In this document: one piece after another, positions 51,975 through 55,074 of the stretch
How positions within the stretch are numbered: position 1 is the first letter of the stretch
How the letters are laid out: every line of letters starts with the position of its first letter
Source: Podarcis liolepis
Lineage: Eukaryota
Reading direction: 5' to 3' (one strand)
NCBI GenBank assembly: GCA_965112155.1
Contig: OZ218103.1
Length of the DNA stretch: 64,000 nucleotides
Translations under genes and position numbers: made by a program
The notes under the pieces: model-generated
What the model was told of the DNA's origin: nothing
The model's database searches: none
What the model saw: only the letters and a program-made list of their open reading frames with translations

Positions 51975-52631
51975 ATCAAGGTTTTGTTTGGGGTTTGCCG
52001 AGAGCTGTCAAACTCCTCAGGCTCAGAGCATATTTTGTAGTCCACAAAATATGATACCATGATTAATTACTCAGGCTTTAAGATACTACAATACTTATTT
52101 TTTGGTACCTTATTTCATGTGTTCTTTTTTTAGAGGAAGGGGGCCCCAATTTTGGGAACTGCACCGGGATCCACAACCATTTTAATCCAGCCTTGGCTAA
52201 AGGTCAGAGGAAAGAAAGAGATAAAAGTGCAGAATGTCTTCCCACCTTTTGTGCAAGGACTGAGACTATTTAATGTGGTATCTATACGTAATGTTAATAT
52301 TTAGCAGCACTGCATTCAGAGGGTGGAGAAGCAGCTGACAGTGTGTGTTGCACACTGGAACATTTGACTGTCCCAAAGCCAGCAATGAAGCCCAACAATA
52401 GGGTCACTGTTCAAGTGAAACAGTGGATGTGCTTTCCATCTCCTAAAAGCAAAACAGCAAACAGAAAAATATTGTCTGTCATGAGCAAAGTCTTGTGAGA
52501 AACCTTTGCAAGCGTTTTAGTAATGCTCCATATTTAACACTCCAAACTATGCTTTGCTATCAGAAAAACTGGTGTTGCTTTTTTCTAAGCAGACTTCAGT
52601 GAAATTGGAAAGACTTTGAATGAGCACTTAC

Positions 52632-52746
52632 CTTTTGATTCAGGACTTGGATATTGCTCAGAATGACTAGAAGCAAAGTCAGAAGAAGCTTGGCAATTCA
52701 GTGGCCACTGGCAATCTTGGGAAGACTGACCTTTTCGTGGCCAGGC
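52632..52746 (-). CDS. ANKS1A: Candidate additional ANKS1A exon, 115 nt (AWPRKGQSSQDCQWPLNCQASSDFASSHSEQYPSPESK)
   Basis: CCTTTTGCAG| acceptor, consensus AAAG|GTAAGT donor; phase 0 to 1; open frame; joins the phase-1 acceptor at 50857. Confidence 0.66.
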
Positions 52747-53213
52747 CTGCAAAAGGATCTTATATTATTTAAGTTCCAATGCCATTATCAAAGCAGCATG
52801 TGCCAAAGCGCAAACTCTACACGCAGAATAATACTCCTGCAACTAAGTACAAAATGTTTTCTATGTATCCCGCTTCCAAGGTTTCAAATATGACTTTGTA
52901 TAAGTGGGAACTTTGACAAGTGGCAGAAAGGAATAGAAGGGTGAAAAGGACAAAACGTTGGTTTAGATCATGAATTAGATGATCTTTCCCCACTAGGCAA
53001 ATACGTCACATGAAGAAGTCACAGGCATTTTCCTTCTTTCACTTACTTCATGTACAGTCCTTTGCCATTTAAGCCCATACTGACTAACTTGCATATAAGC
53101 TGCAAATTGTTTTTGCTCCTACAGTAAACATAAAATGTTAAGATTTCCCTCCCAAGCTGTTTATATCCATTATATTTAGGTTCAATGCATATTAAGGATC
53201 AATCCTGTCCTAC

Positions 53214-53254
53214 CTGTGGCTGGACACTGCTGGCAGGACCTGAAGATGATTCAC
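53214..53254 (-). CDS. ANKS1A: Candidate additional ANKS1A exon, 41 nt (GESSSGPASSVQPQ)
   Basis: TTTTATTTTTAAATTCTTAG| acceptor, CAG|GTAGGA donor; phase 1 to 0; open frame. Confidence 0.62.
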
Positions 53255-53721
53255 CTAAGAATTTAAAAATAAAAATATTTAACTATGAATTCCTGTCCTT
53301 GGCCAGTAACAGTTAAGAGAAAGGCAGCAGGTAACTGTGGAAGGTGGGATCACTGAAATACAGTTTCCAAACAGACAGGTGGTTTTCCAGCCCTACAAAG
53401 CAGTGTGTCAACTTTTCCTCCATCATGTGGATAACCGCTTATAGCCTAAAGGAGTAGATCATGCTCAGAAAGAAAATGGGGGTAGGGGAAAGGCAGCATA
53501 AATCCTACCTGGAAGACAGTTGTTTGGAGGCAACTGTCAAAATTGGGGAACTATGTCACAACACTAGATTACTATCAGCAGTACAACAGTAAAAGTTGGG
53601 CTGCATAAAACTACGAAGGACCATAGTTCAGTAGGATAGCATTGCCCCACATTCAATCCTCATCATCTACTTTCTGATAGAAGAGGCACACAGACATGGG
53701 CCTCAGATGTCTTTCATAGGG

Positions 53722-53915
53722 CAGAGCTTTCCAAACTGTGTGTTGTGACATTTAAGTGTGTCGGCTGCAGTGTGTAGGTGTGTCATGCAAACACTCCCCG
53801 TGTTCCTCCCAGGGCTATAAAGGGGTTCGTTTAACCTCCGGTTTGCTGGTTAGTGTCGTGAAATTATGCATGTCTTAAAAGTGTGTCACCGACATGAAAA
53901 GTCTGGAAAGCTCTG
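53722..53915. mobile_element. hAT MITE, 194 bp
   Basis: TIRs CAGAGCTTTCCAAACT...AGTCTGGAAAGCTCTG; perfect 8-bp TSD TCATAGGG at 53714-53721 and 53916-53923. Confidence 0.93.
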
Positions 53916-54059
53916 TCATAGGGTCTGGGTCACTTCATATGGGGAGAGGCACTCCTTGTCAGCTTATTAGTCAAGTCAGTGAGTATTGTGAAGGGAGTTG
54001 GCGTCTGTATTACGTTTTGAATTACTGTGGTAACAGAGGTTCCTTGTACTTTTATATAC

Positions 54060-54154
54060 CTGTATCTGTATCTGCAAAACCTAGGTATATATCAACGTCT
54101 GGAACTGTGTTACTGAAGCTTTTATCTTCTGCACCAATGAACTGTTTGGGACAC
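54060..54154 (-). CDS. ANKS1A: Candidate additional ANKS1A exon, 95 nt (CPKQFIGAEDKSFSNTVPDVDIYLGFADTDT)
   Basis: CACACACAG| acceptor (weak pyrimidine tract), ACAG|GTATAT donor; phase 2 to 1; open frame. Confidence 0.5.
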
Positions 54155-54970
54155 CTGTGTGTGGTGACTGGAACTATGTAGGTCTCTCACACCAGATTCC
54201 CAACATAGCAGTAATCTAACATAGAGGTTACTGGAGCACAGACAACAAAAGTTAGGCTATTCCTATCCAGATAGGGGTGCAGCTGGGCCACCATCCAAAG
54301 CTGATGGAAGGCACTCTGCTCCACTGAAGCCACCTGTGCCTCAAGCAAAAGCGATGGATCTAGAAGTACCCCTAAGCTGGGAGTGTAACCCCATCAAGAG
54401 CAGGCCACCTCCCATCTATCCGGTCTAGATGTATAATGGGGAACATAATCCAAAAAGCCTGTAAACACCCTCTAAACCTCTGGAAACCCTTTTAAAAACA
54501 AGCAGCACTTACTAGCCATTTTCAACACGTTCCCTGCAGTCTTTGTGCTGTTTTGGGGCTATTTTTGCACCTTTTGAAGTTTAAATTGAATTATTTATTT
54601 ATTTCCCGGAGCTGCACATATACGCAGTCATGCAAGAGTTGAACACACGTACATATGGGGTTGCCTGTATGTCCCACTGAACATAAGACTTTCTTTCAAA
54701 TCAATATGCATAGGAGCAGGGTACATGATTTACATGCTGTCCTTTGAACAGCAGTGCTTAGTTTTCATGCAAACCAAGGCTTTTAGCATAGTGCCACCAG
54801 TAATTTAGACTATTGTTCCTACTGAAAGCAGGTATAGACCCACAATTCTGATATGCTGTCAACTGCTGAAAATATTTTTGTTTTAGTAATATTTTTAGAG
54901 AATTTATTTGATTCAGGGTTGGTCATTTATTCTGAATTTTATGTTTTATGAGTTGACCATTTAATAATAT

Positions 54971-55006
54971 TCTCTCTCTCTCTCTCTCTCTACATATATA
55001 TATATA
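54971..55006. repeat. Compound (TC)n-(TA)n microsatellite
   Basis: (TC)10 followed by TACA(TA)n. Confidence 0.9.
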
Positions 55007-55046
55007 TTTAAAGGAAAATGTAATGCATGAAGTGCTCTCAAGTTAC

Positions 55047-55074
55047 CTCTCACTTGAAGTAGTAAGGGTGCAAG
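55047..55074 (-). CDS. ANKS1A: Candidate additional ANKS1A exon, 28 nt (ACTLTTSSER)
   Basis: TTTTGTTGTTACAAAG| acceptor, GAG|GTAACT donor; phase 1 to 2; no stop; frame is restored by exon 54060-54154. Confidence 0.45.

Follow-up and report, generated by a model that had tools for sequence, protein, structure and literature searches.

The ANKS1A gene of the lizard Podarcis liolepis raises the question of which exons join the exon with the HPYELL motif (exon U) to the large exon of 542 nt, in the part of the gene that encodes the linker of the protein. In the window, by which we mean the whole analysed stretch of 64,000 nucleotides, four short open segments, A to D, lie in this interval, and the first-pass annotation read all of them as a chain of exons that inserts 93 amino acids into the lizard protein. 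We are confident that C and D are ordinary ANKS1A exons between U and the 542-nt exon, adding 52 serine-rich residues to a linker that is predicted to be disordered, and that A and B are probably pseudo-exons, removed together with the intron in which they lie.

Gene and exon map

The gene is on the minus strand, where 14 exons of the window map to residues 220–796 of the Podarcis muralis RefSeq protein P0180 (XP_077785024.1). Its earlier assignment to ANKS1A (Odin) is borne out by the ankyrin repeats, the SAM domains and the PTB domain of the product, as well as by the best matches, which are named ANKS1A. The positions of the exons, of the segments and of the neighbouring repeats are given in Table 1.

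Table 1. Features of the ANKS1A linker region; positions are counted from the first base of the window.
Feature	Position	Strand	Remarks
Whole window	G000:C6:44888001-44952000		
Exon U (HPYELL motif), 121 nt, phase 1 out, upstream anchor	55776-55656	minus	Residues 416-456 of P0180; 3' end joined straight to C in X1 contig 1
Segment A, 28 nt, probable pseudo-exon in single-copy intron sequence	55074-55047	minus	AG/GT present; bypassed in X1 contig
High-copy interspersed repeat adjoining B	54429-54203		40 scored of 2,306 candidates; other copies 77-85% identical
Dispersed repeat holding all of B and both its splice sites	54205-53957		86 candidates, of which 40 scored; 39 of these are other copies, at 71-87% identity
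Segment B, 95 nt, probable pseudo-exon within repeat	54154-54060	minus	AG/GT present; RNA depth 0 in four thin runs; GT donor missing from two aligned repeat copies
Exon C, genuine and already annotated, 41 nt, phase 1 to 0	53254-53214	minus	X23 and X24 reads, X1 contig; residues 456-469 of P0180
Exon D, genuine and already annotated, 115 nt, phase 0 to 1	52746-52632	minus	C>D joint, loose ends into the 542-nt exon; residues 469-507 of P0180
542-nt exon, phase 1 in, downstream anchor	50857-50316	minus	Protein 99% identical to Podarcis muralis ANKS1A proteins

On the minus strand, each of the four segments is preceded by AG and followed by GT and is free of stops; the lengths claimed for them (28, 95, 41 and 115 nt) were confirmed, as were their phases, which add up as proposed between U and the 542-nt exon. 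A, C and D are single copy.

Two further exons were noted. A small one of about 16 codons at 33757-33707, between the 542-nt exon and the next, is present in Podarcis RefSeq isoforms, and the primate ANKS1A proteins compared read through without it. A lone paralogous exon (L002, G000:C11:34655774-34656319), 28% identical to the 542-nt exon, likely belongs to ANKS1B.

Transcript evidence

Four sequencing runs were mapped on positions 52560-54230, an interval that covers B, C and D and leaves out A and the junction by which U would skip directly to the 542-nt exon. The depth was thin, with 8 records mapped from X23, 8 from X24, 1 from X21 and 12 from X1; X1 is only presumed to be RNA, and its contigs lose rare forms. 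The one read of the single-cell run X21 was located on a repeat and was uninformative.

The joint between C and D, across a GT-AG intron of 467 nt on the minus strand, was found in three X23 reads, in one X24 read and in an X1 contig at a depth of 48.5. Beyond D, the loose ends of three X24 reads and of X1 match the start of the 542-nt exon, and on the other side one X1 contig passes unbroken from the 3' end of the HPYELL exon into C, skipping A and B. The first mates of the reads on C and D lie on the plus strand, which is consistent with minus-strand RNA in the usual stranded library. Segment B had a depth of 0 in all four of these thinly covered runs over the mapped interval. Thus, among the junctions proposed earlier for inspection in RNA, 53214>52746 and 52632>50857 were recovered, and 55656 was instead joined directly to 53254. 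With these spliced junctions, and with frame and sequence kept in relatives, C and D have the properties of coding exons.

It should be noted that the RNA departs from the window at a small number of bases, with Ser for Ala at residue 39 of D and residues of the P. muralis type in the exon upstream of C, so its source may be a sister species. Separately, the consensus of the three X24 reads with loose ends agrees with the window for about 25 bases into the 542-nt exon (50857-50830) and then diverges from it, which represents either an allele or noise.

Segments A and B

Pseudo-exons and repeat-derived cryptic exons form a general class in vertebrate introns. Segments A and B resemble this class in their AG/GT ends, their open frame and, for B, the repeat origin; true exonisation requires inclusion in mRNA, and in the thinly covered RNA examined no inclusion was found of A or of B, which lies within an interspersed repeat. 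As a pair, the two segments keep the frame. Their donors each match seven of the nine consensus bases. The acceptor of A has 13 pyrimidines among 20 bases and an upstream stretch of 61 nt free of AG; only 4 T are present among the 20 bases that precede the AG of B. One copy of the repeat that holds B (L008) aligns across 54205-53957 at 72%, and two copies that were aligned base by base are without the GT donor and differ by indels. The adjoining repeat at 54429-54203 we take to be LINE-like. A (TA)n(GA)n microsatellite was also observed at 55012-54972, about 35 nt downstream of the donor of A.

At the protein level, the peptides of A and B shared no four-residue word with any of the 417 ANKS1A linkers that have both anchors, and both segments were missing from all listed RefSeq isoforms of P. 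muralis (5) and P. raffonei (3).

The number of chance pairs was counted as frame-keeping pairs of stop-free AG/GT segments at the level that A and B barely pass, that is, at least 11 pyrimidines of 20 and at least 7 donor matches of 9. This strict filter gave 9 pairs in the U–C intron of 2.4 kb; among 21 control windows of the same size, also taken from introns, 4 held at least one pair. With the donor filter one step looser, 93 pairs were obtained in the U–C intron and from 7 to 191 in each of seven control windows. The counts are those of a crude filter, under which even D, a real exon, reaches no more than 10 pyrimidines of 20, and some control windows contain small annotated exons. The consensus splice score, which fails to separate the real D from the false B, was used only for this count. 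Because frame-keeping pairs arise by chance in control windows, a pair such as A and B needs no special cause, though such pairs are not found everywhere at the strict filter.

If all four segments were exons nevertheless, A and B would be a young lineage-specific cassette pair, with B exonised from the repeat, used in an unsampled tissue and giving the insert of 93 residues. The phases and the two donors fit this reading; the lack of the GT donor in the two other aligned copies implies that it arose in the copy of B, the thin RNA depth leaves room for minor or tissue-specific use, and the strict filter, with a chance pair in so few control windows, indicates that A and B are not trivially common. 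All the same, B is unread in four of four runs, U is spliced directly to C in X1, neither segment occurs in the 417 linkers or in the listed isoforms of the two Podarcis species, the acceptor of B is T-poor and chance pairs are common, so we regard the four-exon reading as very improbable. We give equally little credit to the idea that one of the two segments, A with its 28 nt or B with its 95 nt, acts singly as a poison exon, shifting the frame at a low level of use and directing ANKS1A mRNA to nonsense-mediated decay. Poison exons are not visible in protein models and are depleted in steady-state RNA, and A, with its single-copy sequence, its pyrimidines and its AG-free stretch before the acceptor, would be the better candidate; yet there is no positive evidence for such an exon, and B is a decayed repeat.

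The earlier proposal of a four-exon insert of 93 residues is therefore not supported: the insert has 52 residues, no protein model contains A or B, and the X1 contig runs from U straight into C. Of the two frame-preserving pairs proposed, C+D stands, with its RNA junctions and its conservation as far as amphibians, and A+B lacks support, with no reads on B in the four thin runs and 0 of 417 linkers. The remark that the second pair was the stronger of the two agrees with this outcome, C+D being better supported than A+B.

Conservation of exons C and D

The C+D peptide of the window is identical at 51 of 52 residues to those of the RefSeq proteins of P. muralis (XP_077785024.1, P0180) and P. raffonei (XP_053249031.1, P0188); the difference is at insert residue 39, which is Ala in the window and Ser in the two models, and these models also hold neither A nor B. 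All listed RefSeq isoforms of P. muralis (5) and P. raffonei (3) carry C+D. The insert of 52 residues is thus already annotated in RefSeq.

Among the first 220 proteins retrieved, 147 have C+D. The remainder consists of 52 short proteins, 4 bird models that carry different inserts and 17 entries in which an anchor motif is missing. A homologous insert was found at the same place in squamates, tuatara, turtles, alligator, gharial, crocodile, two caecilians and three salamanders. In turtles, 36–39 of 52 residues of C+D and 132–137 of 181 residues of the next exon are identical to P. muralis; the corresponding values in amphibians are 21–25 of 52 and 102–122 of 181. The counts for C+D come from gapped pairwise alignments of a serine-rich sequence and are rough, and by them C+D appears to be conserved about as well as the next exon. 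The best-kept part of the insert is the motif at the junction of C and D, where turtles, crocodilians, tuatara, caecilians and salamanders share a QPQ/PRKG-type core. Tuatara, turtles and crocodilians have an insert of 59 residues, most squamates one of 58, and lacertids and Rhineura one of 52.

The two tyrosines that the first-pass annotation had expected the insert to add fared differently: that of DIYLGF lies in B and falls away with it, and that of EQYP occurs in 21 of the 29 species that have C+D and is missing in 8.

Several features of D may be mentioned in their own right. It is 6 codons shorter in lacertids and in the amphisbaenian Rhineura than in the other aligned squamates, including the tegu Salvator, and a shared in-frame deletion of this size would fit a lacertid–amphisbaenian clade. 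An Arg-x-x-Ser motif is present in D of tuatara, most turtles, crocodilians and salamanders, and Cys replaces the Arg in all 18 aligned squamates, possibly with the loss of a basophilic kinase or 14-3-3 site. In the terrapin Malaclemys, five RefSeq isoforms (P0158, P0159, P0528, P0531 and P0532) begin at a Met within D and are without ankyrin repeats, owing to either an internal start or an assembly gap.

A variant of the preferred explanation, and compatible with it, is that lizards regulate C+D as a cassette pair and skip it in some tissues, so that inclusion would not be near-constitutive. The alligator RefSeq isoform XP_059573243.1 skips both exons (one of the 15 crocodilian members listed, the other 14 of which carry C+D), one caecilian isoform retains C only, and the 52 short proteins, 32 of them bird-type, include 20 squamate entries without the pair, 5 of these from P. 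muralis. However, none of the 20 is a named RefSeq 'isoform X', and these models may have been projected from proteins of mammals or birds; in addition, the X1 contig is continuous from the upstream exon into C. Regulated skipping in lizards is therefore a possibility that we hold only tentatively, and skipping of C+D, where it occurs, appears to be minor.

Absence of the pair from bird and placental protein models

Placental and bird ANKS1A proteins have the same ankyrin repeats, SAM domains, PTB domain and flanking exons as the lizard protein, and their models are without C+D. In 117 of 120 placental proteins, including the human isoform P0492, a linker of 54–56 residues leads directly from the HPYELL exon into the large one, as the earlier annotation had stated for human Odin; the other three are without the downstream anchor. 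C+D are likewise missing from the bird models examined. Both absences refer to protein models, not genomes, in a set of sequences without marsupial, monotreme or frog proteins.

One duck model, P0097, which has no isoform label, contains an in-frame D-like stretch whose score against alligator D, 51, was reached in none of 1000 shuffles. The stretch, which would seem to be what is left of D after decay, stops at the same residue as reptile D; it has diverged, contains gaps and includes nothing C-like. Three other bird models with inserts gave no match to C+D; their initially high scores were rejected, being due to flanking residues and vanishing once the flank was removed.

Outside tetrapods, the linkers of sharks and teleosts, and also that of ANKS1B, showed no convincing gain over shuffles when compared with C+D (at best, 34 of 300 and 14 of 300 shuffles scored as high), and given these scores we do not claim an origin of the pair before the tetrapods. 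ANKS1B (P0224) and the fish ANKS1A proteins (whale shark P0228, wrasse P0221) likewise have a long stretch before GLLHGSS, but it is unalignable with C+D; the coelacanth ANKS1A model in UniRef is short.

On this comparison of proteins, C+D were probably present in the tetrapod ancestor and were dropped twice, in birds and on the line to placentals; the losses are taken as separate by parsimony because crocodilians keep the pair. The direction of change proposed earlier, an insertion in the lizard, is thus reversed: C+D are an old tetrapod feature that has probably been lost in birds and placentals. We consider it reasonably likely, with less assurance than for the exons themselves, that C+D were kept throughout amphibians and non-avian reptiles and were lost independently in birds and mammals, the two warm-blooded lineages, with Odin of mouse and human a shortened derived form and a decayed remnant of D in a duck intron. 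The pair might instead persist in birds and mammals as rare unannotated exons, and the in-frame stretch of duck P0097, with its end at the last residue of D, could be taken in that sense. Its divergence and gaps and the lack of a C-like part speak against this, as do the absence of the pair from all 117 scorable placental proteins, many of them from deeply sequenced apes and macaques, and the failure of the three further bird models to match, and we find such persistence unlikely.

Discussion

Since 41 and 115 nt keep the frame only as a pair, C and D could be skipped or lost only jointly, which would permit a clean loss. In lizards, the form with C+D would be the major one. The insert lies outside every Pfam domain, and in the AlphaFold model residues 456–507 have a pLDDT of 23–28 and no secondary structure, like the whole linker of residues 302–733, a result that lends weak support to disorder, as the same model also gives low values for part of the established PTB domain. 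Serine accounts for 15 of the 52 residues. From these features we suggest that C+D would act as a flexible spacer between the ankyrin repeats and the SAM domains, with possible serine phosphosites, rather than as a tyrosine docking module.

Anks1a phosphorylated at Ser647 and Ser663 is reported to move to the ER and to load EphA2 into COPII vesicles (PMC5027278). Two serines 16 residues apart are present in the 542-nt exon of ape and lizard proteins alike, and those of the lizard are inferred from this spacing to be the equivalents of human Ser647 and Ser663. Xenopus morphants are reported to be partly rescued by mouse ANKS1A (PMC7840914), and such a partial rescue would fit a dispensable spacer. 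The novel exon of human ANKS1A listed for intron 4 (PMC1904267) encodes a different peptide and was rejected as a counterpart of C or D. A literature search, with subscription journals mostly outside its coverage, found no paper on these two exons.

Taken together, our results support a model in which C and D are regular exons of the lizard gene and A and B are removed with the intron, and for annotation this means that the 93-residue insert should not be filed. The weight of the double loss is modest, since no function is known to depend on C+D. If the double loss is true, it would be a clear-cut example of two lineages convergently losing a frame-keeping pair of exons from a disordered linker, and mammalian Odin would be without an ancestral segment upstream of its regulatory Ser647 and Ser663 sites.
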